Assembly (NCBI GenBank): GCA_964399195.1
Contig: CAYNPY010000009.1
Coordinates: forward strand, 1,758-65,325
Source: an uncultured Fibrobacteraceae bacterium
Lineage (GTDB): Bacteria > Krumholzibacteriota > Krumholzibacteriia > LZORAL124-64-63
Direction: 5' to 3'
DNA length: 63,568 bases
This document shows, piece by piece, positions 16,680 to 34,440 of the stretch. Made by a program: the position numbers and the translations under genes. Below the pieces are notes generated by a model that was not told the DNA's origin, searched no databases, and was given only the letters and a program-made list of their open reading frames with translations. How positions within the stretch are numbered: the stretch's first letter is position 1; each line of letters begins with the position of its first letter.

Positions 16680-16804
16680 CGATCAGACCTCTGCCTGAGC
16701 CGCGGCGGCGCGGGTGCGTCCCCGCGCTGCCGCTTCGTTTCGCGCAACTTCGGCCGGCCCCTTGCGATGGCAGGCTCAGGCGCGGGTGCGCCTTCGCCGC
16801 AACC

Positions 16805-19168: not shown

Positions 19169-19478
19169 GCCGCGGTCCTTTCCCACTCAGCCCTCGACAG
19201 CCGTGAAGCGGGCGCGGTGCGCCCGGGTCCGGGCGGTGTCATCGGCCATGGCGCCAGCGACCAAAGCGATTTCTGGACGCGGGCGTCGCGCAGGCACCGC
19301 ACGTGACGGGTTCCTGGCGGCCGGTTTTCCGCCGTACCGGTCGGGATCCGGCGGCCGGCGGCCGGGGCATCCGCCATAACCCTTTTTCCGTCAATGAGTT
19401 GACCTGATGGGTGCACCGGGCGTGGCGGGCACGTCTCCTGCTGCCTCGGTCCACCACCCGTCGCGGAAGGAGCCGCCG

Positions 19479-20285
19479 ATGCCCACCGCCGCCCGCCTCC
19501 CTGAGCCTCGCCCGCGCGCGCGCCTGTCCGTGCCCGCCGCGCCGTCGCCCGCGTTCCTTCTGACCGAGCAACTGCTCGAAGCCCGGCGCTGCAGCCGGCT
19601 GCCGACCAATCTGGCGGGCCCCGACGAGGACGTGAACATCTACCTGGCGCTGCGCCTGGAGGCGTTCGCGCGCGCGGGCGTCGATCCCCGCGTCGTGCCG
19701 GGCCTGGACCCGTTGGTGCCGGGGCCGCCGCCGGGCCGAAGCCGCCGGGAGCGCGCGGACTGGTACCGGGCGAACGCCGATCACCGCCTCCTGAACCTGG
19801 GCCTGTTCGGCCGCGGCGACACGGCGCGGCGTCGCGACGTGCCGTGGGGCCTGTCGCGCGAGGAGGCGTTCGGGCGCGACCTGGCGATCGCGAAGGCGTG
19901 CTACGCGCTGGCGGCGGACCTGCTGGAGCGGGGACCCGGCGGCGGCACGGCAGCTGTCGCCGTGCTGAGGAAGCTCGCCGCCCGCGGCGACGACTATGTC
20001 CACGTGCTGGCCGTGCTGGCGGTGCGGCGCCTGGGGTTGGGCGCGCAACTGGACGAGCGGGACCTGGCGGAGTTGCTGGCGCCCCGCAGGACGCCGGCTG
20101 CGGCCGCGGTGGCCGACCTGCTGGCGAGCGTTCCTGCCGACGCCGCGGACGTCGTCCTGGACCTGTGGCTGGATTACCGCCGCGCGGGCGACCCGGCGCT
20201 GCGGCGCCGCGGCGAACGGCTGGCGCGCGCGGCCGGGCTGGCCTGGCCGCAGGACGGGGAGCCTACCGGATCCCGCAGAACTTGA
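19479..20285 (+). CDS. Hypothetical protein
   Basis: Open frame with AAGGAG RBS and non-random sequence (DEDVNIYLA, YRANADHRLLNLGLF, CYALAA). Confidence 0.7.
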   Translation: MPTAARLPEPRPRARLSVPAAPSPAFLLTEQLLEARRCSRLPTNLAGPDEDVNIYLALRLEAFARAGVDPRVVPGLDPLVPGPPPGRSRRERADWYRANADHRLLNLGLFGRGDTARRRDVPWGLSREEAFGRDLAIAKACYALAADLLERGPGGGTAAVAVLRKLAARGDDYVHVLAVLAVRRLGLGAQLDERDLAELLAPRRTPAAAAVADLLASVPADAADVVLDLWLDYRRAGDPALRRRGERLARAAGLAWPQDGEPTGSRRT

Positions 20286-21495
20286 GGATCTCGCCGTAGA
20301 GGACGCGCTCGCCGTGCGCGGCCAAGATCGCGTGGCCGCCGGTGGGGAACACCTGGAACCGCGACGCGCGGTTGTGCGCCTTCTTCTGCAGGAAGCGCAG
20401 CGAGTCGGGCGAGGCCCGGTCGTCGTCCTCGCACTGGGCGGCGTAGATCGGCACGCGGACGCGGCCGGCGCTGCTGCGCGCGGCGTCCATGCCCTCCAGC
20501 AGGTCGGCGTTCAGGCCGAGCAGGCGCCGGAACAGACCCAGGCGATGCAGGCGGAAGCGCACGATCTGCCGTTGGACCGCCGACACGCGCGGCATGAGCG
20601 CGGGCGCCAGGAGCACGAGGCTGTTGATCGCCTCGAGGCGGCTGGCCAGGTGCAGCGCCAGGGCCGCGCCGTAGCCCAAGCCCACCACGTGCAGGTTCCC
20701 GCCGCCGCGGCTGAGCATCCGGCAGCGCTGCCCCGCCTGCAGCAGCGAGGACTCCCACGAGGCGTGGCTGACCGCATCCGGCACGGCGCCCAGTTCCGGC
20801 AGGCGCAGCACCCAGACGTTGCAATCGTTGTCGCCCAGGTGCCGGGCCAGCCCGCGCAGGTCCGCCGGCCCCGTGGACATCCCGTGGATGAGCAGGAAGG
20901 AGGCGCGGGCGTTCTCGCGCACGCGCAGGAACGTGCGGTCTTCCTCGGGAATGCGACGACCCGACTCGAACGCCGCGATCAGCTTCTGGTGCGTGCGCAG
21001 GGTCATCAGCTGGCCGCGCGCGGTGTCCTCGCGGTCGCCGCGCGTGCGCGCCAGGTCCCAGGCGGTGAGCGCCAGCGCGCGGGCCTCGGGCGTGACCGCG
21101 GGCTCGGCCGGCATCGGTTCCGGGGCCGCCGGCGCGCCGTTGCGCGGGAGACCGGCGCGGGCCGCCGACGTCGGCGCGTCGGCCGGGGAGTATGACGACG
21201 GGGCCTGCGGCCGGGACGGACCGGGGCGCCGCCCCTGCCCGCCCCGCTCACCCTGACCGCCGCGGCCGCCACGGTCGCCGCGCCCGGCGCGATCGCCCTG
21301 CCCGGGGCGATCGTTGGGGCGCGCGCGATCGCCCCTGTCGTCCGGCGCGCCGCTCCCGTCGGCCGGCACGCGGCTGAGCCGACCGGGTTCGCGGCCGACC
21401 CCGCGCAGCCGCTGACCGCGGCGCGGCCCGCCGCCGCCGCGACCGCCCTGGCCGCCCTGGTTGTCGCCCTGGGAACGGGAACCGCCGTCGTTCAC
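20263..21495 (-). CDS. Alpha/beta-hydrolase-fold protein lacking the catalytic Ser, with a long G/R-rich disordered N-terminus
   Basis: LLIHG, nucleophile elbow GLGYG (normally GxSxG), LVLLAPA, acidic residue in CEDDDR, GGH. Confidence 0.75.
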   Translation of the reverse strand: MNDGGSRSQGDNQGGQGGRGGGGPRRGQRLRGVGREPGRLSRVPADGSGAPDDRGDRARPNDRPGQGDRAGRGDRGGRGGQGERGGQGRRPGPSRPQAPSSYSPADAPTSAARAGLPRNGAPAAPEPMPAEPAVTPEARALALTAWDLARTRGDREDTARGQLMTLRTHQKLIAAFESGRRIPEEDRTFLRVRENARASFLLIHGMSTGPADLRGLARHLGDNDCNVWVLRLPELGAVPDAVSHASWESSLLQAGQRCRMLSRGGGNLHVVGLGYGAALALHLASRLEAINSLVLLAPALMPRVSAVQRQIVRFRLHRLGLFRRLLGLNADLLEGMDAARSSAGRVRVPIYAAQCEDDDRASPDSLRFLQKKAHNRASRFQVFPTGGHAILAAHGERVLYGEILKFCGIR

Positions 21496-21627: not shown

Positions 21628-22779
21628 TCAGCGCACGGGGGCCTCCGCCACCTCGCCCAGCAGCGCGTCCAGGCGCGGTCCGATGCGCGCCCAGGTCCAG
21701 CCGTCGGCCAGCGTCTGCAGGCCGCAGACGTGGCCACAGGCTCCGCCCGAGATCAGATCCGTCAGCAGGCCCTCCAGCCCGGCCTGGTCGCCGTAGAAGT
21801 GGCGGCCCCGGCAAGCCGGTCCGTACAGCGAGGGATAGACCTGGCCGCGCGGCAGCACGGCGTAGGCGCCGGCGTGGATCGCCTCGGCCACCGAGATGCC
21901 GAAGTATTCGTGCGCCGCGCAGCTGACGACGATGTCCGCGGCCCGGAGCCACGCCTCGTACGTGCGGCGCTCGGGGATCCAGGCGAAGGCGCGGCAGCGC
22001 GCGCCCAGGCGCTCGGCGACCGGGGCGAACACCGCTTCCTGTCCCGCCGGATCGCCCAACAGCGCCACCTCGAAGTCCAGTCCGCGCTCGAGCAGCGCCT
22101 CCAGCGCGCGCGCGAACATCTCCGGACGCTTGTCGAACTCCCAGCGGTGGTTCCACAGGAGCAGGTGCCGCTGCCCGCGCGGCCACGGCAGGGCTTCGGA
22201 CTCTTCGCACGGTCCGCCGCGGTACTGCGAGAAATGTCCCGGCGGCAGCGGCGCCCGTTCGAGTCCGACCGGGATCACCTCGCTGCGCGCGTGGATGCGC
22301 GCGGGGACGTCCTTCGGCACCGCCTCCGGCATGCGGTTGAGGAACCCCGGGATGGCCTCCAGGAACACGTCGCGGTGCCATTCGGAATTGAACACGACGC
22401 GGTCGGCCGCCAGGCAGCTGATGATGTTGGTGAACCCGAAGTGGAAGTCGAACTCCTCGAGCGGGCTGAGCGGATACGTCAGTTGGTTCTCGTGCATGTA
22501 GAGCACGACCGGCACGCGGTCCAGGGGCGGGCGGAGCAGCCCGCGCAGGTCGGCGACGTTGAGGAAGCCCGTCGTCAGGATCAGGTCGGCCCGCGGCGGC
22601 TGCGCATTGAGCCGGTCGGCGAACCACGCCGCCGCCGCCCGCATGCGCCATTTCCAGAACCGTCCGGGCAGCGCCAGCACCTTGTACCGGTGCCGGGAGC
22701 AGCCGAGCAGGCCCTCGCGGAACGCGCGGTGCGAACCGTCGTCCCACGGTTCGAGAAAGATTATCTCTTTTGAAGTCAA
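21628..22779 (-). CDS. DUF3524-domain GT-B glycosyltransferase (GTDC1/QTMAN-like)
   Basis: LEPWDDGSH, LPGRFWKWRMR, YMHENQLTYP, FNSEWHR, WNHRWEFDKRP, HEYFGISVAEA. The TTG start is uncertain. Confidence 0.85.
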   Translation of the reverse strand: MTSKEIIFLEPWDDGSHRAFREGLLGCSRHRYKVLALPGRFWKWRMRAAAAWFADRLNAQPPRADLILTTGFLNVADLRGLLRPPLDRVPVVLYMHENQLTYPLSPLEEFDFHFGFTNIISCLAADRVVFNSEWHRDVFLEAIPGFLNRMPEAVPKDVPARIHARSEVIPVGLERAPLPPGHFSQYRGGPCEESEALPWPRGQRHLLLWNHRWEFDKRPEMFARALEALLERGLDFEVALLGDPAGQEAVFAPVAERLGARCRAFAWIPERRTYEAWLRAADIVVSCAAHEYFGISVAEAIHAGAYAVLPRGQVYPSLYGPACRGRHFYGDQAGLEGLLTDLISGGACGHVCGLQTLADGWTWARIGPRLDALLGEVAEAPVR

Positions 22780-23073
22780 GAAGATACGCCTTTCCGAGCC
22801 GTGACCGGGCGGCCGCCCCCCCGCGCCATCACGACGCGTTTTGTTGATTCAACAGGTGCGATATTGATCAAAGCGCAGATCTAGCGTACCATTATTAGGC
22901 TCTAGTTCGCGCATTTTCAACGTCCGGGAGCGGTCCGGGGGATCGTTTCCGCACCGCCGCGCGGCGCCGACCGCGCCGGGCCCGGGCCCGGCGGTCGAGG
23001 CGCGCACCCGAACCACGGCCGGACATCCGTTCCGGAGCAGGGCCGCCGGCGCCGGCGGCCAAGGGGAGAACTC

Positions 23074-26000
23074 ATGAAGAAGTCGTCGCTCGTCGTCCTG
23101 TTCGCCCTCGCGCTGGGCGTGGCCTTCGGCGCTCCGTCCGACGCGGCGGCCGGCGCCCCGGTGCCGGTCCCCGGGCGGGTGCTCGTCGCCTTCGAACCCG
23201 GCTTCGTCCCGGCGGTGGACAAGGCCGCCGGCCGGCTCGCGACGGGCGTCGGCGAACTGGACGCCGTGCTGGCCGCCGCGGGCGCGTCCGGGCTGGAGCC
23301 CCTCTTCGCCGCCCCGGCCGGCGCCGGCAAGAACGACGGCTTGTACCGCGAGTTCGCGCGCCATTACCTGGTCGAGCACGCCGACCCGCGCGGCAACGAC
23401 GCGGTCATCGCGGCGCTCGAGTCCCTCCCGTTCGTCGAGAGCGCCGAATCCGATCTGCAGTTGGCGGCGCACGGCACCGCCTTCCTGCCGAACGACCTGA
23501 ACAACCAGTGGTACCTGCGCAACCTGACGACCGGCGGCGGCGACATCCGCGCGATCGGCGGCTGGGCGGAGTCCCTGGGCGATTCGAACATCATCGTGGC
23601 CGTGCTGGACACGGGCGTCGACTGGCAGCATCCCGATCTGGGCGGACCGCACCCGGACAAGGTGAACGGCGCGCTGTGGACCAACTGGGAGGAGTACTAC
23701 GGCACGACCGGCATGGACGACGACGGCAACGGCTTCGTCGACGACATCCGCGGCTGGGATTTCGTCAACGTGTCCGGGACGCTGGTGTACCCGGGCGAGG
23801 ACGCGGGGCCGGCGGACAACGACCCGATGGACTTCAACGGGCACGGCACGCTGGTCTCCGGCTGCATCGCGCCGCTGACCAACAACGGCGTCGGCATCGC
23901 GGCCGTCGCTCCCGGCTGCAAGGTCATGGCGATCCGCATCGGCTTCCAGAACACCGACGGGCTCGGCGTCTCGTACGCGTCGCTGATGGCTTCGGGCTTC
24001 ATGTACGCGGTGAACAACGGCGCCAAGATCATCAACCTGTCCTACGGCACCGGCTTCACGACGGCCTTTGCCAACGCCATCAACGCGGCCCTGAACGCCG
24101 GGCTGGTGATCTGCGCCTCGGCCGGCAATGACGGCGACGAGGTCGCCGGCTACCTGCAGGGCCTCTCCGACAGCCGCATCCTGGCGGTGGCGGCCACCGG
24201 CTCGGGCGACACCAAGACGGACTTCTCCAGCTACGGCACCTGGGTCGACATCTCCGCGCCCGGCGAGGGCATCTACACGACTGCGTACAACCAGTCCACC
24301 GGCACCAGCACCTACGACTCGACGCAGGGCACCAGCTTCTCGAGCCCCATCGCGGCGGGCGCCTGCGCGCTGATCTGGTCGGCGCACCCGTCCTGGACGT
24401 CGTCGCAGGTGGCGGCGCTGATCCGCTCCAGCGCCGACCCGCTCGACGCCCTCAATCCCGCCTACGCCGGCAAGCTGGGCGCCGGGCGCGTCAACCTGCT
24501 CAAGGCGCTGGGCGACAACGTGCACCAGTTCCCGCAGGAGTTCCCGACCCTGTTCGACGCGATGAACGGCGCCGCGGCCGGGGACACGGTCAAGGTGCGG
24601 GGCGACGTCGTGGTCAGCGCGCCGTTCACCGTGATCGGCAAGGGCCTGAAGATCTTCGGCGGCTACGACGCGAGCTATGCGTCGCGCGACCTGGGCGACG
24701 GGCGCACGCTGGTGACCGGCGGCGGCGGGGTGCAGCTGACCTTCCTCGGCGACATCACGGCGACGACCGAAGTCGACGGCTTCGAGATCACCGGCGGCAC
24801 CGGCCAGAACATGAACATCATCGCCCCGGGCACGCGCTGCGCCGGCGGCGTGCTGGTCAACCAGGTCTCGCCGGTCCTGCGCAACCTGAAGATCCACGGC
24901 AACACCGTGGGCAGCGGCAGCCAGCTGGGCTGCGGCGGCGGCCTGCTGCTGGCGAACTCGTCGTCGCTGGTCGAGAACTGCGAGATCACGGGCAATACCG
25001 CGATCTATGGCGGCGGCGTCTTCGTCTCGGGCGGCTCGCCGACCTTCGTGGACTGCGTGATCACCGACAACGTGCTGCTGGCGGGCAACCCGACGTACGC
25101 GCCGCGCGGCGGCGGCTTCTACGCGCACGGCTCCACAGCGGCCCTGCTGGGCTGCGAGGTCAGCGGCCACCTGGACGCCGATCTGGGCGGCGGCATCTAT
25201 GCCGGCGGCGCGGGCCCGATGTCGGCGCTGACGATCGACAACTGCACGGTGTCGGGCAACACGGCGAAGACCGGCGGCGGCGGCCTCTACCAGACCGGCG
25301 GCGCGCTCAACGCCTCGTCCACCGTGTTCGAAGGCAACGGCAAGACGCCGGCTTCGAGCTTCATGTACGGCGGCGGCCTGCAGGCCACCGGCGGCGCGCT
25401 GACCACGCTCGTCGACCTTACCGTCCGCAACAACCAGGCGCAGGTGGGCGGCGGCGTGGCGCTGGTCGGCTGCACCGATGCGACCATCGACGGCAGCGTG
25501 GTGTACGGCAACACGGGCCAGTTCTGGGCCGGCGGCATCCTGTTCGAGAACTGCCCCAACAGCGGCATCACCTCGAACACCGTCTACGGCAACACCGGCG
25601 GCGCCGGCGCCGGCGGCGTCTACGTCGCGAACTGCGTCCCGGTGGTCAGCCACAACATCTCGGCCGGGAACCTCGGCGGCGCGACGTTCGGCAACGGCTT
25701 CGCGTTCTCGGGCGCGGCGGTGACGCCGACCTGCAACGACGTGCACGGCAACGCCGGCAGCGGCTGGACGGGGATCACGGACCCGACCGGAACCGGCGGC
25801 AACATCGCCGTCGACCCGCTGTTCTGCGACGCGGCGGGCGGCAACTTCCAGCTGCAGTCGGCCTCGGCGTGCCGGCCGGAGAACAGCGGCGCCTGCGGGC
25901 TGATCGGCGCCCTGCTCGGTTCGTGCGGGGCCTCGGCGGTGCCGGGTGGCCAGGAGGCGGTGCCGGCGGCTTTCCGCGTCGAGCAGAACTTCCCCAACCC

Positions 26001-26244
26001 GTTCAACCCGCAGACGACGATCCGCTTCGCGCTGCCGGCGGCCGCGCGCACCACGGTCAGCATCTTCGACGTCGCCGGACGGCACGTCCGCACGCTGCTC
26101 GACGAGGAGCTGGCCGCCCAGGTGCACCAGGTGACCTGGGCCGGCGACGACGCGAAGGGCCAGCCGGTGGCGGCCGGCGTCTACTTCTACGAGGTCAGCG
26201 GCGGCGGGCACCGGGCCGTCGGGCGCATGGCCTTGGTCAAATAG
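23074..26244 (+). CDS. Secreted S8 subtilisin-like protease with right-handed beta-helix repeats and C-terminal FlgD-Ig domain
   Basis: Triad VAVLDTGVD / NGHGT / GTSFSSP and oxyanion SAGND; repeated GN..GGG beta-helix motifs; QNFPNPFNPQTT...MALVK. GGGGAG RBS. Confidence 0.9.
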   Translation: MKKSSLVVLFALALGVAFGAPSDAAAGAPVPVPGRVLVAFEPGFVPAVDKAAGRLATGVGELDAVLAAAGASGLEPLFAAPAGAGKNDGLYREFARHYLVEHADPRGNDAVIAALESLPFVESAESDLQLAAHGTAFLPNDLNNQWYLRNLTTGGGDIRAIGGWAESLGDSNIIVAVLDTGVDWQHPDLGGPHPDKVNGALWTNWEEYYGTTGMDDDGNGFVDDIRGWDFVNVSGTLVYPGEDAGPADNDPMDFNGHGTLVSGCIAPLTNNGVGIAAVAPGCKVMAIRIGFQNTDGLGVSYASLMASGFMYAVNNGAKIINLSYGTGFTTAFANAINAALNAGLVICASAGNDGDEVAGYLQGLSDSRILAVAATGSGDTKTDFSSYGTWVDISAPGEGIYTTAYNQSTGTSTYDSTQGTSFSSPIAAGACALIWSAHPSWTSSQVAALIRSSADPLDALNPAYAGKLGAGRVNLLKALGDNVHQFPQEFPTLFDAMNGAAAGDTVKVRGDVVVSAPFTVIGKGLKIFGGYDASYASRDLGDGRTLVTGGGGVQLTFLGDITATTEVDGFEITGGTGQNMNIIAPGTRCAGGVLVNQVSPVLRNLKIHGNTVGSGSQLGCGGGLLLANSSSLVENCEITGNTAIYGGGVFVSGGSPTFVDCVITDNVLLAGNPTYAPRGGGFYAHGSTAALLGCEVSGHLDADLGGGIYAGGAGPMSALTIDNCTVSGNTAKTGGGGLYQTGGALNASSTVFEGNGKTPASSFMYGGGLQATGGALTTLVDLTVRNNQAQVGGGVALVGCTDATIDGSVVYGNTGQFWAGGILFENCPNSGITSNTVYGNTGGAGAGGVYVANCVPVVSHNISAGNLGGATFGNGFAFSGAAVTPTCNDVHGNAGSGWTGITDPTGTGGNIAVDPLFCDAAGGNFQLQSASACRPENSGACGLIGALLGSCGASAVPGGQEAVPAAFRVEQNFPNPFNPQTTIRFALPAAARTTVSIFDVAGRHVRTLLDEELAAQVHQVTWAGDDAKGQPVAAGVYFYEVSGGGHRAVGRMALVK

Positions 26245-26266
26245 TCGCGGTTCCGCGCGGCTTCCG

Positions 26267-26294
26267 GGGGCCCCCGTCGGCGGATGGGGGCCCC
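26267..26294 (+). terminator. Hairpin after the S8 protease gene
   Basis: GGGGCCCCCGTC-ggcg-GATGGGGGCCCC (one G-U pair), followed by TT. Confidence 0.55.
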
Positions 26295-26545
26295 TTGACG
26301 TACCATGATCGATTCTTCGTTTTCGAATTATTTCCTGTCACACGCTCAGAACAATTTGGACGCCACCTCCTTTTTTTGCCGTTTCGCACTTGAAGCTGCC
26401 GCCGGGATCTGGCATGCTCCACCGTAGGTGGTTTGTGCGCCCGCCGGAACCCGGATTCCGGCCGGGGCGCGGACGGCCAGGGCGCCGTGGCGGCTTCGTG
26501 CGGCGGCGCCGCAAATGTCGAGTCTCTGCACAGGGGGGAAGATCC

Positions 26546-27493
26546 ATGCGCATCTTGAAATCGATCCTGACCGCGGCCCTGGTCCTTTCGCTGGCCGGCG
26601 CCGCCTTCGCCGCCGACCTGCACGACACGACCAAGATCCCCGTCAACAAGGCTCCCGGCATCGGCATCACCGGCTCGCAGGGCCTGCTGGACTGCAGCGG
26701 CGCCATCGAGGTCGACCTGAACGTCGGCGTCTACAACGGCACGACGGTGGGCGCGCCCAACAACGTGACCTTCTACGGCTGCAGCGCCTGGAACGAGGGC
26801 GGCGGCGAGGTCGTCTATCGCGTGACCTTCCCCGCCGACGTGACCTGGGAAGTCGGCCTGAGCGGCCTGTCGGCCGACCTGGACCTGGCCGTGCTGGACG
26901 CCTGCGACGAGAGCCTCGGCTGCCTCATCGTGGTCGACAGCGGCGTCTACGTGTCCGAGCCCTACCCCGGCGAGTTCTACTTCGTGGTGGACGGCTACAA
27001 CGGCGCCAGCGGCCCCTTCACGCTCACCTTCACGACCACGCCGTACGTGGCGCCGCCGACGATCTGCGAGCTGATCCAGGACGTGACCGGCACGTACTTC
27101 ATGGGCGACACCTGCGACGGCTACAACAACATCGCCACCGACGCCTGCGGGACGTACACCGAGAACGGCCTCGAGCACTACTACGAGATCCAGGTTCCGG
27201 CGGGCTGCTTCTTCACGGCCAACGTGACGTACGACACCGAGGACGGCGCCCTGTGGGTGCTCGACGGCTGCGACCCGGGCTACACCTGCGTGGGCTACGC
27301 GGACGACACCTTCGGCGGGCAGATGGAAACCGTCACCTACACCAACACGACCGGCGCGATGCAGACGGTGATCCTGGTCCTCGACTCGTGGGGCACGGCC
27401 GCCTGCGGCACGTACCAGTTCGAGTTCGTCAGCGACTGCGCCGTGGCGACCGAAGTCGAGTCGTTCGGCGGCGTGAAGGCGATGTTCCGTTAG
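26546..27493 (+). CDS. Secreted Cys-rich protein with two tandem beta-sandwich (PPC-like) repeats and C-terminal FGGVKAMFR motif
   Basis: Signal peptide MRILKSILTAALVLSLAGAAFA; internal duplication (GEVVYRV...DLDLAVLDAC vs LEHYYEI...DGALWVLDGC). Confidence 0.8.
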   Translation: MRILKSILTAALVLSLAGAAFAADLHDTTKIPVNKAPGIGITGSQGLLDCSGAIEVDLNVGVYNGTTVGAPNNVTFYGCSAWNEGGGEVVYRVTFPADVTWEVGLSGLSADLDLAVLDACDESLGCLIVVDSGVYVSEPYPGEFYFVVDGYNGASGPFTLTFTTTPYVAPPTICELIQDVTGTYFMGDTCDGYNNIATDACGTYTENGLEHYYEIQVPAGCFFTANVTYDTEDGALWVLDGCDPGYTCVGYADDTFGGQMETVTYTNTTGAMQTVILVLDSWGTAACGTYQFEFVSDCAVATEVESFGGVKAMFR

Positions 27494-27534
27494 GACCCGC
27501 CTGAGCACGCTCGGCCTGACCGGCCGCGCGCAAG

Positions 27535-27562
27535 AGGGCCCCGGGGTTCGCCCCGGGGCCCT
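27535..27562 (+). terminator. Hairpin with UUCG loop
   Basis: AGGGCCCCGGGG-ttcg-CCCCGGGGCCCT, a perfect 12-bp stem after the secreted-protein gene. Confidence 0.65.
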
Positions 27563-27672
27563 GTGCCTTGTCCGGCCGCCGGCGGCACGGTACCTTGGCG
27601 GTCGGCAATCCCCCGCGGCCGACGCGCGCCCTGCCGTCGCGCCGCCGAACCCGAGCCCCCGCGAGGAATCCG

Positions 27673-28056
27673 ATGGCCACCCGCCCGTCCCGCAAGCTCC
27701 AGACGTTCGCCAACCCGCACCCGGAGCGGGACTACGAGATCGAGTTCGACTGCCCGGAGTTCACCTGCCTGTGCCCCCTGACCGGCCAGCCCGACTTCGC
27801 CCGCTTCCTGATCACCTACGTCCCGGACCGCAAGTGTGTGGAACTGAAGTCGCTGAAGCTCTACCTGTGGTCCTACCGCGACCAGGGCGCCTTCCACGAG
27901 AAGGTGACCAACCAGATCGCGGACGATTTGGTCACGGCGCTGCGGCCGCGGCGCCTGGATGTCCGCGGCGAGTGGTTCGTGCGCGGCGGGATCGCGACGG
28001 TGGTCAAGGTCTCGCACGACGGCAGCGCACCGGCCCGGGCCCGGTCGAAGCGCTGA
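27673..28056 (+). CDS. queF: NADPH-dependent 7-cyano-7-deazaguanine (preQ0) reductase, short type
   Basis: [16 protein letters not shown] (catalytic Cys and Asp), [25 protein letters not shown]. Confidence 0.96.
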
Positions 28057-28167
28057 CGGCCGCCATGCATTCGTGACAGTTCTCGGGTATCCTGACCGCA
28101 CCCAGACCGGCTGACGGCGGACGCCGGACCCTCCCGCGCCGCCCCGGCTCCCATCCAGGAGGCTGTC

Positions 28168-31158
28168 ATGTCACGCTTGCTCCCGCTCGTCCGCCTGGGA
28201 CTGCTCCTGCTGCTGGCCGCGCCGGCGGCGGCGCAGCTGGACCCGCCCCAATTCGCGCGCATCGACGAAGCGCTGGCCGCCGGCCGGATCGACGCCGAGC
28301 AGGCGCTCTTCCACCGCTTCCAGTACGTGTTCGACGGGGACAAGCTCCCGGCCGACCTGGCGCCGGCCGAGCGCACGCCCATCCGCTGCGCGACGCCGCT
28401 GATCATCGAGTACAACCGCGTGCGTGATCGGCTGCGCCCGGAGACCGTCGCCGCGATCGAGGCCTGGCTGGCGCCGCCGGCGGGCGACAAAGCGACCTAC
28501 ATCAGCCCCTCCGGCCGGTTCTCGCTCACGTACGTGACCGCGGGCGGCAACGCCGTGCCGCCGGCCGACACGAACCCGGCCAACGGCGTGCCCGACTACA
28601 TCGAGCGCGTGGCCGGCTACCTGGACACTTCGTGGAACACCGAGATCACGCAGTGGGGCTTCACGGCGCCGCTGACCAGCCCCTACTACGCGGTCAGCTT
28701 CTCGAACCAGGCGGGCACCTACGGCTACACCACGGTCTCGGGTTCGACCACGCGCATCGTGCTGGAAAACGACTATGTCGGATTCCCGCCCAATGACGAC
28801 CCGGACGGCGACGCCCTCGGCGCGGCCAAGGTGACCTGCGCGCACGAATTCAAGCACGCCTCGCAGTACCGCACCTCGCTGTGGAGCGAGGGCGGCTGGG
28901 TCGAGGTCGACGGCACCTGGGCCGAGGACCTGGTCTTCGACGCGACGAACGACTACTACAACTACCTCGGCGCCGGCAACGGCATCACGTCGCCCGGCAC
29001 GTCGCTGGACGGCGGCGGCACCGGCTCCTACGAAGACTGCATCTGGCAGCAGTGGATGAGCGAGACGTGGACGCCGCAGGTGATCGTCGACCTGTGGACC
29101 TGGCGCGCGACGCACCAGGCCCAGTCGATGCTGGCGTCCTACGACGCGATCCTGGCCGCGCGCGGCTCGTCGATCGCCGCCGGCTACCCCGTGTTCGCGG
29201 CCTGGAACTACGCCTGCGGCGCGCGGGCCATCACGGGGTTCGGCTACGAGGAGGCGGCGAGCTACCCGACCAGCCAGGCCACCGCCGTAGCAGCCTATCC
29301 GTACGCCACCAGCGGCGCGTTGAACCACCTGGCGGCCGCGAATTTCCACTGCACGGGTTTCGTGCCGGGCGAGCCGGGCGAGTTGCGCGTCGACTTCGAC
29401 GGCGCCGACGGGCAGCCGATGGCCGTCATGGCCGTGATCCGCCGCAACGACGGCACCGGCCTGATCGAGCCGATCGCCCTGGACGGCGCCAACAGCGCCA
29501 GCGCGGTCCTCTCGGTGCCGCTGGCGGACCTCAGCCGCGTCGGCATCGTGGTGGTCAACTCCGGCACGACCGGCGACGGCAAGGCCTATTCGCTGACGAT
29601 CAGCCGCGACCTGCCGCCGGCGGCGGCCACGCTCAGCAGCGCTTCGATCGCCAAAACGATGCCGACCAACTCGACGGGCAGCGAGGTGCTGGACCTGTCG
29701 AACACCGGCGCGGCCGGCTCGCAGCTCGAGTGGGCCGCCTATGTCGTGGCGGACAACGTGGGGCTCCCGGCCAAGGCCGGCCGCCGCAACGCCGCCGCCG
29801 TACCGGCCGTCGGTCGCGCCGCGCCCGGCAAGCTGGAGCAGGCCGCGCCGCTGGCGTCGGTGCAGTACGCCGGCGACTGCGTGCTCGGCAACGACGACAC
29901 CGGCAACATCCAGGGCTACTACGGCACCTGGGTGACCGGCCAGGAATCGTACGCCACGTTCATCAACCCGGCCGACTACGCCTGCTCCTGCAACCCGGGC
30001 TTCAACGTGCGCTCGATTCACCTGGTGCTGTACATGCCGGTCGGCGCGACTCTGCAGGCGCAGGTCTCGCTGGCGGCCGCCGGCGCCGCGTGCGACGGGC
30101 CGGGCGCCATCCTCGAGACCTCGGCGCCCGTCTCGTTCTCCGGATTCACCACCGCCGGTTACTACAACCTCGAGGTGCCGTGCAACTTCGCCTGCCAGGA
30201 CATGGACGGCTCCTACTTCCTGGTGTTCGAGATCCTCAACGCGGTGTCCGGCGTCGGCATGCCGGTCGACACGACGCCGCAGAGTTGCGTCAACTTCAAC
30301 CAGTGGGGCGAGGGCTGGCAGGACCTGGTCAACGGCTACAGCTTCGCCGGCGACATCCTGCTGTGGGCCGACGTCGACTGCTGCGGCACGCCGGAGCCCA
30401 GTTCCTCGGTGCTGTCGCCGAACGGCGGCGAGGTCTTCGCCGTCGGCGGCAGCCTGCAGGTCGACTGGGCCGCCCAGGTGCTGACCGAGGTCAAGGTCGA
30501 GCTGAGCCGCGACGGCGGCGGCACCTGGGAGGTTCTGGCGGCGTCGACGCCCAACGACGGCACCGAGACGTTCGCGCTCACGGGCCCGGCCGGCGCGGAC
30601 TGCCTGGTGCGCGTGGGCAGCACCGACGGCGCGGTGACGGATGTGAGCGACGGCCCGTTCTGGGTCTACGAGCCCGTGCCCTGGTTGACGGTGGCGCCGA
30701 CGGAGGGCACGCTGGCGCAGGGCGCCACGCAGCCCCTGACGCTCTCGTTCGACACCGCGGGGCTGCCCGACGGCCCCTACCAGGCGTGGCTGGTCATCCT
30801 CGACAACGCCGCCTCCTCGCCGGAGGTGGTGCCGGTCGGCCTGACCGTGCAGACCTACATCAGCGGCACGGGCGTGCCGACGGTGTTCGCGCTGCGCGGC
30901 AACGCCCCCAACCCGTTCAACCCCTCGACCCGGATATCTTTCAGCGTCCGGACGGCGGGGCTGGCCGTGGTCGACGTGCTGGACCTGCAGGGCCGCCACG
31001 TGCGGACGCTGCTGTCGGGCCCGGTCGAGGCCGGCGAGCGCTCGCTGGACTGGGACGGCCGTGACGACGCGGGCCGGCCGGTGGCTTCCGGTTCGTACCT
31101 CGCGCGCCTGCGCGCGGACGGGCAGGTCGCCACGCACAAGATGGTGCTGGCCAAATAG
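28168..31158 (+). CDS. Secreted HExxH metalloprotease (MXAN_6640-like) with C-terminal FlgD-Ig domain
   Basis: Signal peptide, NGVPDYIE, IVLENDY, CAHEFKH (HExxH), NAPNPFNPST...HKMVLAK. The family name is from recall. Confidence 0.8.
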   Translation: MSRLLPLVRLGLLLLLAAPAAAQLDPPQFARIDEALAAGRIDAEQALFHRFQYVFDGDKLPADLAPAERTPIRCATPLIIEYNRVRDRLRPETVAAIEAWLAPPAGDKATYISPSGRFSLTYVTAGGNAVPPADTNPANGVPDYIERVAGYLDTSWNTEITQWGFTAPLTSPYYAVSFSNQAGTYGYTTVSGSTTRIVLENDYVGFPPNDDPDGDALGAAKVTCAHEFKHASQYRTSLWSEGGWVEVDGTWAEDLVFDATNDYYNYLGAGNGITSPGTSLDGGGTGSYEDCIWQQWMSETWTPQVIVDLWTWRATHQAQSMLASYDAILAARGSSIAAGYPVFAAWNYACGARAITGFGYEEAASYPTSQATAVAAYPYATSGALNHLAAANFHCTGFVPGEPGELRVDFDGADGQPMAVMAVIRRNDGTGLIEPIALDGANSASAVLSVPLADLSRVGIVVVNSGTTGDGKAYSLTISRDLPPAAATLSSASIAKTMPTNSTGSEVLDLSNTGAAGSQLEWAAYVVADNVGLPAKAGRRNAAAVPAVGRAAPGKLEQAAPLASVQYAGDCVLGNDDTGNIQGYYGTWVTGQESYATFINPADYACSCNPGFNVRSIHLVLYMPVGATLQAQVSLAAAGAACDGPGAILETSAPVSFSGFTTAGYYNLEVPCNFACQDMDGSYFLVFEILNAVSGVGMPVDTTPQSCVNFNQWGEGWQDLVNGYSFAGDILLWADVDCCGTPEPSSSVLSPNGGEVFAVGGSLQVDWAAQVLTEVKVELSRDGGGTWEVLAASTPNDGTETFALTGPAGADCLVRVGSTDGAVTDVSDGPFWVYEPVPWLTVAPTEGTLAQGATQPLTLSFDTAGLPDGPYQAWLVILDNAASSPEVVPVGLTVQTYISGTGVPTVFALRGNAPNPFNPSTRISFSVRTAGLAVVDVLDLQGRHVRTLLSGPVEAGERSLDWDGRDDAGRPVASGSYLARLRADGQVATHKMVLAK

Positions 31159-31272
31159 GCGGCGCGGGCTGCCGGCCGCCGGGCCGGCGGCAACGATGGA
31201 CGGGCCGCTCCCGCGAGCCGGATCGCGCGGGGCGGCCCGTCGCCTTCTCCGCCGATGCGCGGCGGCGGCCGG

Positions 31273-32289
31273 TCAGATTCGAAACGGCTGCGGCCGCCCG
31301 CAGCCGGGGCAGGCGGCGCCCGCGCCCAGGCGGGACACGGCGCGCGGGCCGCCGCGGTCGACCAGCAGCTCGCCGCAGGCCGGGCAGTGCGAGTCGCGTC
31401 CCATCGCGCCGCCGACATCGCCCAGGTGCACGTTGCCCAGATACACCCACTCCAGCCGGGCGAGCGCCTGTTCGCGCGCGCGCAGCAGCGTCGAGCGCGG
31501 CGTGGGCGGCGCCTGCAGCCGCCAGGCCGGATGGTAGGCGCTGAAATGCAACGGCACCGACCGCCCCAGCCCGGCGACGTGCTCGACCAGCCGGTCGACG
31601 TCCGCAGGCGCGTCGTTGTGCCCGGGAATCAGCAGGTTCGTCAGCTCCACGTGCACGCCGGCCGCCAGAAAGGCGTCGATCGCCGCCAGCACCGGCCCCA
31701 GCCGCGCCTTGCAGACGCGGCGGTAGAAGCGGTCGTCCATCGCCTTGAGGTCGATGTTCGCGGCGTCGACCAGCGGCAGCAGCTCGGCCAGCGGTTCCGG
31801 GTTGAGGTAGCCGTTGGTCACCAGCACCACGGCCAGCCCGGCCTCGCGGGCGGCCAGCGCCGCATCGCGCACGAACTCGAACCAGACCAGCGGCTCGCTG
31901 TAGGTGAAGGCCAGTCCCACCGAGCCCTGGCGGCGCGCCGCCGCGACCAGCTCGCCCGGTGTGGCCGGCCGCGTGGGCGCGTCCGGCCGCTGGCTCAGGC
32001 TCCAGTTCTGGCAGAACAGGCAATGCAGGTTGCAGCCGGGCGCCGCCACCGAGAGGATCTCGCGACCCGGGTGGAAATGGTACAGCGGCTTCTTCTCGAT
32101 GGGGTCGAGGGCGACCGTGGCCACGCGGCCGTAGTGGAGCGGCCGCATCACGCCCCCGTGGTTGGCGCGCGTGCCGCAGGGACCGGCCTGGCCCTCGCGC
32201 AGCCGGCAGCCGACCGGACACAGGTCGCAGGCGGCCTGGCCGTTGGGCAGGGGCCGCCACCAGGCGGCCGCGATCCCGGTGCCGTTCAT
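31273..32289 (-). CDS. amrS: AmmeMemoRadiSam-system radical SAM enzyme
   Basis: N-terminal CDLCP..C..C, DPIEKKPLYHF.PG, GCNLHCLFCQNW (CxxxCxxC), FTYSEP, VTNGY, NIDLK, YHP, VYLGN. Confidence 0.9.
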   Translation of the reverse strand: MNGTGIAAAWWRPLPNGQAACDLCPVGCRLREGQAGPCGTRANHGGVMRPLHYGRVATVALDPIEKKPLYHFHPGREILSVAAPGCNLHCLFCQNWSLSQRPDAPTRPATPGELVAAARRQGSVGLAFTYSEPLVWFEFVRDAALAAREAGLAVVLVTNGYLNPEPLAELLPLVDAANIDLKAMDDRFYRRVCKARLGPVLAAIDAFLAAGVHVELTNLLIPGHNDAPADVDRLVEHVAGLGRSVPLHFSAYHPAWRLQAPPTPRSTLLRAREQALARLEWVYLGNVHLGDVGGAMGRDSHCPACGELLVDRGGPRAVSRLGAGAACPGCGRPQPFRI

Positions 32290-33479
32290 GCGTCGTCTCC
32301 CTCGCGCACGCGGGCCAGGTTCGCCAGGACGCGCGCAGCGCTGCGCCGCAGGCCTTCCGGATGCGCGCGCCACAGCGGCGTGCGGCGGAACCGGGCCCGG
32401 AAGGCATGGTCGTCCAGGGTCGCCAGGTCCGCCAGGCCCAGTTCCGCATGCGCAGGCAGCTCGCCGTAGCCCTCGCGCAGCGGCGGCAGCCCCGTCGGCG
32501 GCTGCGCGGCCGCGCGCCGGTTCCACGGGCACACGGCCTGGCAGATGTCGCAGCCGAACAGCAGGCCGCCCTGCTCGGCGTCGCGACCGGGCGGCGCCGT
32601 CCCGCGCCGCTCGATCGTCCAGGTGCTCAGGCAGCTTCCGGCGTCCAGGCCGCCGCCGGGCAGGATCGCCTGCGTGGGGCAGGCGTCGACGCAGCGCGTG
32701 CAGGTGCCGCAGCGCGAGACCGGCGCCAGCGGAGCGGCGCGCCGGCGACGCGGGGTGACCGCGTAAAGCGGCTCGGCCGCCGGCGCGCCGGCCGGCGGCA
32801 GCCCGGCGACCTCCAGGTCGGTCAACGCCACGCCCAGCAGCAGGCCCGAGCCCAGCTTCTCGTGGATCAGGCAGGTGTTGCGGCCCAGGAAGCCGAGGCC
32901 GGCCAGCCAGGCGTACTCGCGCTCCAGGTAGGGCCCGGTGTCGACCGCCACCCGCGCGCGGAAGCCCGGTCCCGCTCCGGCGGGCGCCGCCGGCGCGCCC
33001 TCCCGCGCTGTCCCCAGCCCGGCCGCCAGCGCCGCCAAAGCGCCGCGGATGTCGCCCAGCAGCAGATCATGGTAGTCCAGCCCGCGCGCGTAGCGGGCCA
33101 CTCGCGCGGTCCAGGGCGGCCGGTCCGGCGTCGTCGCCTCGCCGGGCGGACCGCCGGCCGCGGGGTCGGCATCGCCGGCCGGCCAGCCGTCGGTGTAGCG
33201 CTGCGCGAAGACCAGCAGCGTGCGCGCCCACGGGTCGCGCCCGGTGGGATCCAGCCGGGCCTCGGGCTCGCGCACGAGCCAGTCCAGGCCGCCGTGGCGG
33301 CCCTCGGCGACAAAGGCCCGCCAGCGGTCGGCGTGAGGCAGGGGGCAGGGCAGGGCCAGGGCGCCCGCGAGGTCCAGGTGGTGCGGCGGGCAGGCTTGCG
33401 CCAGCAGGGCCGCCAGCCGGGCGGCGTCCAGGCGCGGCCCGCCGCCGGGGCCGGGCCGGGCGTCAGACCCCGGCGCCAT
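32286..33479 (-). CDS. queG: Epoxyqueuosine reductase
   Basis: ARYARGLDYH, VDTGPYLER, AGLGFLGRNTCLI, CGTCTRCVDACPT, CLSTWTIE, GCDICQAVCPWN. Confidence 0.92.
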   Translation of the reverse strand: MAPGSDARPGPGGGPRLDAARLAALLAQACPPHHLDLAGALALPCPLPHADRWRAFVAEGRHGGLDWLVREPEARLDPTGRDPWARTLLVFAQRYTDGWPAGDADPAAGGPPGEATTPDRPPWTARVARYARGLDYHDLLLGDIRGALAALAAGLGTAREGAPAAPAGAGPGFRARVAVDTGPYLEREYAWLAGLGFLGRNTCLIHEKLGSGLLLGVALTDLEVAGLPPAGAPAAEPLYAVTPRRRRAAPLAPVSRCGTCTRCVDACPTQAILPGGGLDAGSCLSTWTIERRGTAPPGRDAEQGGLLFGCDICQAVCPWNRRAAAQPPTGLPPLREGYGELPAHAELGLADLATLDDHAFRARFRRTPLWRAHPEGLRRSAARVLANLARVREGDDA

Positions 33480-34440
33480 CGCCGGTCCCCGGGCCGGCCA
33501 GACGGGCCAGGGCGCGCCCGCAGTCCTCCACCAGGCGGCGCATGACCTCCGCGGCAGGCGGGACGTCGTCGATGAGCCCGGCGACCTGCCCGATCTCCAG
33601 CTCGCCCTCCTGGAGGTCGCCCTCGAGCATGCCGCGCCGGGCGCGGCCCTGCCCCAGCTCGGCGGCCAGCTCCTCGCGCGAGGCGCCGCGCGCCTCCATG
33701 GACTCGACGCGCTCGCGGAAGGCGTTGCGCAGCAGGCGCACCGGCACGTGCGCCTTGAGCACCAGGCGCGTGTCTCCCGGGCCGGCCGCCACGACGGCCC
33801 GCTTGAACGCATCGTGGCCGCTGGACTCCACGGTGGCGGCGAAGCGGGAGCCGACCTGCACACCGGCGGCGCCGAGGGCGAGCATCGCGGCGACCTGCGC
33901 CCCGGTGGCGATGCCGCCGGCGGCGATGACCGGGATGGACACCGCGCGGACGCACTCGGGCACCAGGACCAGGGTGGTGATCTCGTCGCGGCCGTTGTGG
34001 CCGCCGGCCTCGAAGCCCTCGCAGACCACGGCGTCGCAGCCGGCCTCTTCGCACTTACGGGCCAGGTCGGGATGCGCCACCACGTGCACCACCGTGCAGC
34101 CGGCCTCCTTCAGCCGGGCAGCCGCCGCGCGCGGGGAGCCGGCGCTGGTGAAGAAGATGCGCACGCCCTCGGCCAGCGCGATCTCCAGGCACTCGGCCAC
34201 GTGCGGGTAGAGCAGCGGGAGGTTCACGCCGAAGGGCCGGTCGGTCAGGGCGCGGGCCTTGCGCACCTGCTCGCGGAACGGATCCGGGCGCAGGCTGCCG
34301 GCCCCGATCAGGCCCAGGCCGCCGGCGTTGCTGACGGCGGCGGCCAGCCGCGCGCCCGCGTTGTAGACCATGCCGCCCTGGATGATCGGGTGCTCGATGC
34401 CCAGCAGGCGCTGCAGGCGGGTGTCGGGCCAGCGGGTCAT
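33463..34440 (-). CDS. Nitronate monooxygenase / FabK-like flavoprotein
   Basis: PIIQGGM, AVSNAGGLG, PFGVN, EGFEAGGHNG, IAAGGI, GVQVGSRF. Confidence 0.88.
   Translation of the reverse strand: MTRWPDTRLQRLLGIEHPIIQGGMVYNAGARLAAAVSNAGGLGLIGAGSLRPDPFREQVRKARALTDRPFGVNLPLLYPHVAECLEIALAEGVRIFFTSAGSPRAAAARLKEAGCTVVHVVAHPDLARKCEEAGCDAVVCEGFEAGGHNGRDEITTLVLVPECVRAVSIPVIAAGGIATGAQVAAMLALGAAGVQVGSRFAATVESSGHDAFKRAVVAAGPGDTRLVLKAHVPVRLLRNAFRERVESMEARGASREELAAELGQGRARRGMLEGDLQEGELEIGQVAGLIDDVPPAAEVMRRLVEDCGRALARLAGPGTGDGAGV

Follow-up and report, generated by a model that had tools for sequence, protein, structure and literature searches.

Mannosyl- and galactosyl-queuosine are treated as animal-specific modifications of queuosine (Q), and the enzymes that form them were identified only in 2023. 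To our knowledge glycosylated Q has been reported in animals only. A bacterial enzyme acting on the same nucleoside is GluQRS (YadB), which adds glutamate to Q34 of tRNA-Asp. The animal enzyme QTMAN (GTDC1) is a two-domain GT-B glycosyltransferase with a QTMAN_N domain (PF12038, formerly DUF3524) followed by a Glycos_transf_1 domain. The QTMAN_N family is already in Pfam and thus known, and the initial annotation of the DNA described here remarked that its bacterial members are without known function; in agreement with this, no report of such a function was found in the literature searched.

Our analysis confirmed a gene for a predicted glycosyltransferase of this family (hereafter GT) on the window, i.e. 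the whole stretch of 63,568 nucleotides analysed from an uncultured bacterium of the Krumholzibacteriota. The gene, residues of its product and the surrounding features are as follows.

21628..22779, minus strand: predicted QTMAN-family (PF12038 + GT-B/GT4-like) glycosyltransferase, 383 aa, cytoplasmic, TTG start
GT residues G15-S16-H17, W42/W44/R45, H96-E97-x-Q99...P103 and N131-S132: loops of the N-domain cleft, conserved in the family alignment
GT residues R212, K217 (equivalent to human K296) and E291-x7-E299: donor domain
22920-22891, minus strand: promoter-like site of the GT gene, TTGAAA-18-AATAAT, 10/12 (consensus match only), within an AT-rich island that precedes the gene
21558-21544, minus strand: terminator-like hairpin, weak, past the GT stop and ahead of the hydrolase gene
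20263..21495, minus strand: alpha/beta-hydrolase gene downstream of the GT, 410 aa, hydrolase fold at about residues 147-391
23074..26244, plus strand: secreted S8 subtilase with a FlgD_ig / Por_Secre_tail-like C-terminus (Pfam), between the GT and QueF and divergent from the GT
27568..28056, plus strand: QueF, a unimodular QueF-II preQ1 synthase (PF14489, 7.7e-32; TIGR03139 QueF-II, 175 bits with a cut-off of 87 bits)
32286..33479, minus strand, ATG at 33479: QueG-like epoxyqueuosine reductase with a low-complexity insert (Fer4_16 and QueG_DUF1730 domains)

The QTMAN_N domain was matched over positions 2-168 of the 168 in the profile (E 3.7e-59, 199.7 bits; cut-off 25 bits), and residues 205-317 gave weaker matches to Glycos_transf_1 and Glyco_trans_1_4, slightly under the gathering scores. 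The protein belongs among those labelled by NCBI or JGI as 'DUF3524 domain-containing protein' or 'glycosyltransferase involved in cell wall biosynthesis'; a model specific to the QTMAN family was not found in NCBIfam. For comparison with human QTMAN we used throughout a sequence that we take to be the human protein of 458 aa with Lys at position 296 in HRWEHDK. It passed three checks, namely its length of 458 aa, the placement of K296 in HRWEHDK, which matches a preprint (bioRxiv 10.64898/2026.06.28.735034), and its score against PF12038 (227.6 bits). Identity between the GT and this presumed human sequence was 35% in the N-domain (8e-30) and 37% in the core of the donor domain (8e-25). The presumed human protein is identical at 36 of the 41 columns that reach at least 90% conservation across 67 diverse bacterial proteins of the family, and at all invariant family columns (11/11). 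Its N-domain identities to the bacterial proteins (median 33%, maximum 41.5%) overlap those of the bacterial proteins among each other (33-74%). In the family alignment R212, K217, G294 and E299 are invariant or almost so, and the EX7E motif E291-x7-E299 could be read off the sequence. K217, which does not vary across the 67 bacterial members, aligns with K296 of the presumed human sequence, the lysine required for manQ formation according to the same preprint.

The assignment of the DUF3524 plus GT-B arrangement to the GTDC1/QTMAN architecture in the initial annotation is thus borne out by the Pfam domains and the human comparison, and the gene is, as far as its sequence tells, a full-length and intact relative of the animal queuosine-mannosylating enzyme. 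Like animal QTMAN, it has the two-domain architecture and the equivalents of Lys296, R212 and EX7E, and is predicted to be a cytosolic enzyme encoded by a free-standing gene in a cell in which Q-tRNA is presumably present. Unlike the presumed human protein it is devoid of a low-complexity linker of about 110 residues. A further difference from animals is that the bacterial host makes Q de novo and does not salvage queuine; activity, donor and tRNA target of the GT are putative.

An AF2 model of the GT (pLDDT 93.6) showed a GT-B fold, in which the conserved N-domain residues are predicted to lie at the C-terminal ends of strands beta1, beta2, beta4 and beta5, that is on the side facing the cleft. 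All best PDB matches in the fold search were retaining GT-B enzymes, the nearest solved folds being GlgM, MshA, SenB, OtsA, BshA and sucrose-phosphate synthase (Foldseek, TM 0.6-0.7, E down to 4e-14, identity 11-18%). The PDB copy searched contained no solved QTMAN structure, and the one sequence match there was weak (MshA, E 0.009, C-domain only). Fold and donor-binding motifs are shared with GT4-type retaining GT-B enzymes that act on small acceptors (MshA, BshA, PimA, SenB, GlgM), whereas the N-domains of these enzymes are without the QTMAN_N motifs. A basic pI was considered as a hint of RNA binding and was uninformative (pI 6.4 for the window protein, 6.3 for the family median and 6.8 for the presumed human protein).

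We propose, with a probability of roughly one half, that the GT is a tRNA-Q34 hexosyltransferase, probably a mannosyltransferase, and the bacterial counterpart of QTMAN. A queuosine role is supported because of the homology to human QTMAN. The GT would be a soluble, retaining GT-B enzyme whose C-terminal domain most likely holds an NDP-hexose, probably GDP-mannose, by way of R212/K217 and E291-x7-E299. The anticodon loop of a Q-containing tRNA (tRNA-Asp, perhaps other GUN tRNAs) would be held in the cleft of the N-domain, which is lined by the family-specific loops GGSH, WxWR, HENQxxYP and NS, and the hexose would be moved onto a hydroxyl of the Q34 cyclopentenediol. By analogy to GluQRS, the GT would then be a second bacterial hypermodifier of the Q cyclopentenediol on tRNA-Asp, although GluQRS is a class I aaRS paralogue by fold and its chemistry is unrelated. 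It counts against Q34 transfer that the acceptor specificity of GT-B enzymes can shift at 35% identity.

The host genome encodes QueA+Tgt, QueC+QueE and QueD outside of the window (tblastn with E. coli references), and QueF and QueG are encoded within it. The QueG-like protein scored 161 bits against TIGR00276, under the cut-off of 200, because of its Ala/Pro/Gly-rich insert. Genes for tRNA-Asp(GTC) and tRNA-His(GTG) and a ManC-like gene are also present. The full Q pathway together with tRNA-Asp(GUC) suggests that Q34-tRNA as acceptor substrate is available in the host. The initial annotation had proposed co-occurrence with Q genes as a check, and indeed QueA was detected in 80 of 83 genomes carrying PF12038 (96%), compared to 298 of 301 background Spirochaetota genomes (99%), with Q-negative phyla lying outside the sample. 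Tgt was present in two of the three carriers without QueA, and none of the 83 carriers examined was convincingly Q-negative. Co-occurrence was seen, but it cannot discriminate, because QueA occurs in 99% of the background genomes. As a test of the donor, ManC co-occurrence was uninformative: the domain was found in 34 of 40 Desulfobacterota carriers (85%) and in 93 of 101 background genomes (92%), which is no enrichment, and the remaining 6 of the 40 carriers had no detectable ManC domain.

The family comprises 813 clusters at 50% identity with E<=1e-30 and occurs in 13% of the sampled Desulfobacterota, in 3% of the sampled Spirochaetota and widely in Krumholzibacteriota; when eukaryotic members were looked for, the longer representatives were all bacterial or metagenomic. 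A cell-envelope or polysaccharide function of GT4 type, as implied by the JGI label, would go with clusters of further GT, flippase, polymerase or sugar-modifying genes, and the gene context gives it no support. None of the 224 (113 + 111) flanking genes at about 60 loci belonged to a recurring glycosyltransferase or polysaccharide-export family, the gene context showed no polysaccharide or LPS clusters, and the neighbours of the GT on the window are a hydrolase and a protease rather than genes of such a cluster. A pairing with a phosphatase as in compatible-solute synthesis (SPS/SPP or OtsA/OtsB-like) was likewise not seen: no HAD-type phosphatase is adjacent to the GT, and a HAD domain was detected neither in the downstream 410-aa protein nor in its N-terminal 150 residues. 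The S8 subtilase is outside the GT system.

The initial annotation had further placed the GT about 5 kb from queF and about 10 kb from queG, in separate transcription units, and had taken this proximity as evidence for a link that was 'suggestive only'. The three genes are where it put them (the starts of QueF and the GT are 4.8 kb apart, and the QueG-like gene lies at 9.5-10.7 kb from the GT), and separate transcription agrees with the strands, the promoter-like site of the GT (1 found in the scan vs 0.1 expected) and the hairpin, which we call weak since 3 such hairpins were found in the region vs 1.2 expected. QueF is located on the plus strand downstream of the S8 peptidase gene and a hypothetical gene, and this unit diverges from the GT at a 294-bp spacer that holds the GT promoter-like site. 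One might read this shared spacer as part of a dedicated local Q-glycosylation locus joining the GT in function to queF/queG, the more so as the arrangement with QueF is retained in 31 of 35 Krumholzibacteriota loci and QueF directly adjoins the GT at one locus (L054) from which the S8 peptidase gene is absent. However, the block of about 20 kb around the GT is syntenic as a whole within the Krumholzibacteriota, and unrelated neighbours are retained equally well at 0.70-1.00 (S8 peptidase 0.97, 38/39; a 996-aa protein 0.93; a radical SAM protein 0.87; an HD-GYP-like protein 0.79). Outside of this lineage no Q gene was found in the GT flanks at any of 71 loci (Spirochaetota, Desulfobacterota, Chloroflexota, Eisenbacteria and others), and of the 34 neighbourhood types one is Q-linked, compared to 0.78 expected by chance. 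Moreover, the substrate of QueF is free preQ0, several steps before Q-tRNA exists. About 2.3% of the host genome was calculated to lie no more than 10 kb from a Q gene, so that such closeness is mildly unusual within one genome; across lineages it is not unusual. A local Q-glycosylation locus is therefore largely refuted by the comparative data and very improbable, and Q-gene clustering is ruled out as functional evidence by the outside loci, the neighbour retention and the chance expectation. The proximity argument did not hold up, being block synteny of one phylum-level lineage in which QueF is kept like unrelated neighbours, and the caution attached to it was right. queF and queG themselves are normal genes of the Q pathway, and their place in the same conserved block reflects inherited gene order.

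The same comparative data bear on two other acceptors. The family might act on a non-RNA acceptor (a small molecule, lipid or protein), perhaps together with the alpha/beta hydrolase, with animals having recruited the scaffold later. The hydrolase is the tightest partner in the lineage and the only neighbour retained in all Krumholzibacteriota loci (47/47); beside the GT in other phyla it is absent. Such a partner would suit a reaction on small molecules better than the modification of tRNA. AMP-binding ligases, a thioesterase and a GMC oxidoreductase are among the neighbours elsewhere, the closest solved structures belong to small-molecule GT-B enzymes, and clustering with Q genes was seen nowhere outside the one lineage. 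Those structural matches are, however, generic at 11-18% identity, and the weak terminator-like hairpin separates GT and hydrolase. No operon partner conserved across phyla was found, as would be expected if the acceptor is universal and already present in the cell and not a pathway intermediate. Conservation is strongest in the acceptor-side N-domain, whose invariant loops are common to the presumed human QTMAN. We consider a non-RNA acceptor rather unlikely on balance. A nucleic-acid acceptor other than Q34, such as another tRNA or rRNA nucleoside, a Q precursor (oQ, preQ1) or 7-deazaguanine in DNA, appears clearly improbable. It would fit the rRNA/tRNA methyltransferases, RNase II, SNase-like nuclease, TopA and UvrD that are neighbours in some lineages, but the human enzyme (presumed sequence), which is specific for Q, has the cleft residues in common with the bacterial proteins, and dpd genes were near none of the examined loci. 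Viral relatives of this family were also not found: tblastn against 50,697 phage records and a pattern scan of IMG/VR based on the family alignment gave none, PHROGs yielded one weak generic GT match alone, from a Spirochaete member, and a fold search of BFVD returned generic GTs only.

Hexosyl transfer to Q34 hence has to be judged from the protein itself, as the locus adds nothing beyond homology toward Q glycosylation. Since neither proximity nor co-occurrence gives support, it is the orthology-grade similarity to QTMAN that carries the case for glycosylated Q in bacteria. Tentatively, and at slightly less than even odds, we suggest that bacteria of several phyla (Krumholzibacteriota, Desulfobacterota, Spirochaetota, Chloroflexota and others) turn the Q34 in their own tRNA into a manQ-like hexosyl-queuosine, and that this is a bacterial invention from which animal QTMAN descended. 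If so, prokaryotes would join the known range of tRNA glycosylation, a date could be put on the origin of animal QTMAN, and glycosylated queuosine would be open to study in carriers that can be cultured, for example Desulfonema magnum 4be13 (locus L074; NZ_CP061800.1, gene at about 4,662,270) or a Marispirochaeta isolate. These would offer genetically simple systems for the role of the sugar, be it in decoding speed or in the protection of tRNA-Asp from cleavage, the latter named in a preprint.

In favour of Q glycosylation, the immediate neighbours of the family in some independent lineages are related to RNA or to GDP-mannose synthesis. In three Spirochaete loci a gene for an RsmB/F-type RNA m5C methyltransferase overlaps the GT gene, and a TrmB gene was found convergent with the GT gene, with overlapping 3' ends. 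Such RNA-related neighbours make up a small part of the at least 33 neighbourhood types and may be due to chance. Two further gene contexts of the family were unremarkable. At one locus (L065) a gene for the GDP-mannose pyrophosphorylase ManC overlaps the GT gene by 4 bp, and at another (L069) a gene for another sugar-1-P nucleotidyltransferase is located beside it.

The gene at 21628-22779(-) proved to be intact and a true bacterial representative of the QTMAN family; its host makes queuosine (Q)-modified tRNA. Judged from its sequence, the most likely function of the 383 aa product (here GT) would be glycosylation of Q34, probably with mannose, to which we give about an even chance (roughly 0.5). 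The genome has about 73% G+C (assembly of 3.84 Mb in 197 contigs, 95% complete) and is, judged by the relatives of this gene, a Candidatus Krumholzibacteriota MAG; genes of the window were called from GC3 frame bias together with Pfam/NCBIfam.

Genes around the QTMAN-like gene; families named are from Pfam/NCBIfam
14388-16682, minus: STAS/GAF/HD_5 protein
17279-19186, minus: predicted gene, no family named
19407-20285, plus: predicted gene, no family named
20263-21495, minus: alpha/beta hydrolase
21628-22779, minus: QTMAN_N + GT-B protein
23074-26244, plus: S8 subtilase with FlgD_ig tail, 1056 aa
26390-27493, plus: predicted gene, no family named
27568-28056, plus: QueF
28168-31158, plus: 996-aa protein with FlgD_ig tail
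31273-32532, minus: AmmeMemoRadiSam-type radical SAM enzyme
32286-33479, minus: QueG-like
33463-34440, minus: nitronate monooxygenase family

A promoter-like site of its own, located in an AT-rich island, precedes GT, and a weak hairpin follows its stop. The initial annotation had placed GT near queF and queG in separate transcription units, and the gene calls, the promoter-like site and the hairpin bear this out in every detail. The island (22860-22930, about 70 bp) stands out sharply against the 73% G+C and is part of the spacer from which GT and the S8 peptidase gene diverge. No other sigma-70-like promoter match than the one in this island was found in the region.

The family comprises 813 clusters at 50% identity (E<=1e-30). 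When 67 diverse members (32-65% identical to the window protein) were aligned, 11 residues were invariant (H17, R45, H96, E97, Q99, P103, R212, K217, Y274, G294 and P310) and about 30 further ones nearly so. The human GTDC1 sequence used for comparison is to be taken as unverified; it passes three checks, namely a length of 458 aa, the lysine of its HRWEHDK motif at position 296 and a PF12038 score of 227.6 bits. Compared with it, the window protein is 35% identical in residues 6-169 (8e-30) and 37% identical in residues 207-319 (8e-25), and 36 of the 41 strongly conserved bacterial columns, including all invariant ones, are identical in it. K217 aligns with K296 of the human sequence, and human Lys296 is reported to be required for formation of mannosyl-Q (preprint 10.64898/2026.06.28.735034). 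The N-domain of this human sequence is at most 41.5% identical to bacterial members (median 33%), which is about the distance of the most divergent bacterial members from the window protein (minimum 33%). The unverified human sequence differs from the window protein by an extra linker of about 110 residues.

A confident AlphaFold model of the window protein has a GT-B fold (pLDDT 93.6, pTM 0.92), whose neighbours in the PDB are generic retaining GT-B enzymes with 11-18% identity; a PDB search found no deposited QTMAN structure. The conserved N-domain motifs come after strands 5-13, 31-38, 91-95 and 127-130; in the model this edge faces the cleft, the place of acceptor binding in GT-B enzymes. 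The acceptor-binding N-domain of GT-B enzymes is usually variable. Mainly because it is here strongly conserved, up to the human enzyme, we infer that the acceptor is conserved between the bacterial family and the Q-specific human enzyme. The main rival explanation is an acceptor other than Q34, which draws its best support from the lineage-specific alpha/beta-hydrolase partner and from the fact that acceptor sites of GT-B enzymes are in general plastic. Some sources label the family "cell wall biosynthesis", which is countered by the flanks, as neither glycosyltransferases nor flippases nor polysaccharide families recurred in Pfam tallies of 113 and 111 flanking genes. No paper on bacterial QTMAN-family members was found in the literature searched. 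Phage and viral sequence searches and a fold search that started from this family led to no QTMAN-like glycosyltransferases of DpdA clusters.

The genome of the window encodes the full de novo pathway, with QueF and QueG in the window itself, QueA and Tgt on contig C148, QueC and QueE on C65 and QueD on C20, as well as tRNA-Asp(GTC). QueA was detected in 33 of 35 carrier genomes of a first scan, in all nine carriers among 301 Spirochaetota and in 38 of 39 further Desulfobacterota carriers. Two of the three carriers lacking QueA have Tgt (one a fragment at a contig end) and therefore look like assembly gaps, and no convincing Q-negative carrier was found among the carrier genomes examined. The proposed co-occurrence check cannot discriminate, however, since 298 of the 301 background Spirochaetota genomes have QueA too. 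The donor side was equally flat, with a ManC domain in 34/40 carriers vs 93/101 background genomes.

The proximity of queF and queG was correctly observed but carries no weight as an argument for function, for which it had originally been put forward as suggestive only. A one-genome-per-species scan found at least 589 relatives, and 80 loci were kept; 54 of them belong to the Krumholzibacteriota group (57-89% identity), the other 26 to other phyla (37-45%). QueF lies near GT in 31 of 35 Krumholzibacteriota-group loci with enough flank (0.89), and unrelated neighbours are kept as well (hydrolase 1.00, S8 peptidase 0.97, 996-aa protein 0.93, radical SAM enzyme 0.87, STAS/HD protein 0.79, genes without a named family 0.66-0.70), so that this is conserved block synteny and not selective retention of Q genes. 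QueF and QueG occur in none of the 26 distant loci, Tgt, QueA, QueC, QueD and QueE in none of the 80, and Q genes in none of 45 further loci, which span 547 kb and come from Desulfobacterota, Spirochaetota and two metagenomic contigs. At least 33 neighbourhood types are represented among the 62 loci outside Krumholzibacteriota in which the GT gene could be located; as about 2.3% of the genome is no more than 10 kb away from a Q gene, 0.78 of 34 types would be Q-linked by chance (P of at least one, 0.55).

In other lineages GT is essentially free-standing, and no partner gene was conserved across phyla among the loci compared. Some neighbours are RNA- or mannose-related. An RsmB/F-type (NOL1-NOP2-Sun) RNA m5C methyltransferase (PF01189, 6.5e-29) overlaps the GT stop in three loci of Marispirochaeta and relatives (positions within locus, L058:9989-11891, L076:9869-11862, L078:9872-11883); it is short (259-269 aa) and under every NCBIfam equivalog cut-off. 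In human tRNA-Asp, Q34 and m5C38 are mutually dependent (preprint). TrmB is convergent with GT, 3' ends overlapping, in the L055/L059/L060 lineage. In a Desulfobacterales MAG (L065:11086-12297), the gene of a ManC-type mannose-1-phosphate guanylyltransferase (GDP-mannose pyrophosphorylase) and GT share 4 bp. A sugar-1-P nucleotidyltransferase is the immediate upstream neighbour in locus L069, and a UDP-glucose/GDP-mannose dehydrogenase, into which an intein bearing a LAGLIDADG domain is inserted, ends 4 bp upstream of GT in Desulfonema magnum (L074:7124-9994). RNase II and SNase-like neighbours occur in two Desulfobacterota lineages. These neighbours fit a tRNA mannosyltransferase but, among the at least 33 contexts, are too few to be more than a hint; others have no relation to RNA or sugars (AMP-binding ligase, DUF362-Fer4, CarD, hisH/hisF, TPR proteins, kinases).

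In the Spirochaete loci, GT and the methyltransferase gene overlap stop-to-start, an arrangement like that of a single operon. In two genomes of the Desulfobacterota sample with low G+C (31-32%), spore-photoproduct-lyase-like radical SAM and SNase (thermonuclease-like) genes directly precede GT in the same orientation, with a gap of 7 bp (L159:4195-5959, L160:4230-5992). A DUF362 protein with two [4Fe-4S] ferredoxin domains sits directly beside GT in two phyla, co-directional and overlapping in one Spirochaete and convergent in six Desulfobacterota loci (L062:10056-11177, L157:4763-5887, L146, L161, L163, L165, L168); the known epoxyqueuosine reductases are Fe-S enzymes too.

Within the window, the QueG-like protein contains Ala/Pro/Gly-rich low-complexity inserts and matches TIGR00276 in two stretches (161 bits vs a cut-off of 200); the ATG at 33479 is its likelier start, because the longest ORF (to 33863) overlaps the nitronate monooxygenase gene. 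Directly downstream of QueG, the radical SAM enzyme (31273-32532(-); TIGR04337, 307.8 bits, cut-off 220), whose longest ORF runs into the QueG 3' end, is kept with the block in 26 of 30 related loci. The subtilase and the 996-aa protein both terminate in a FlgD_ig-like domain, which suggests a shared C-terminal sorting signal, and the subtilase adds a sub-threshold Por_Secre_tail match. QueF lies between these two genes on the same strand, an odd site for a housekeeping gene; in locus L054 the subtilase is missing and QueF abuts GT.
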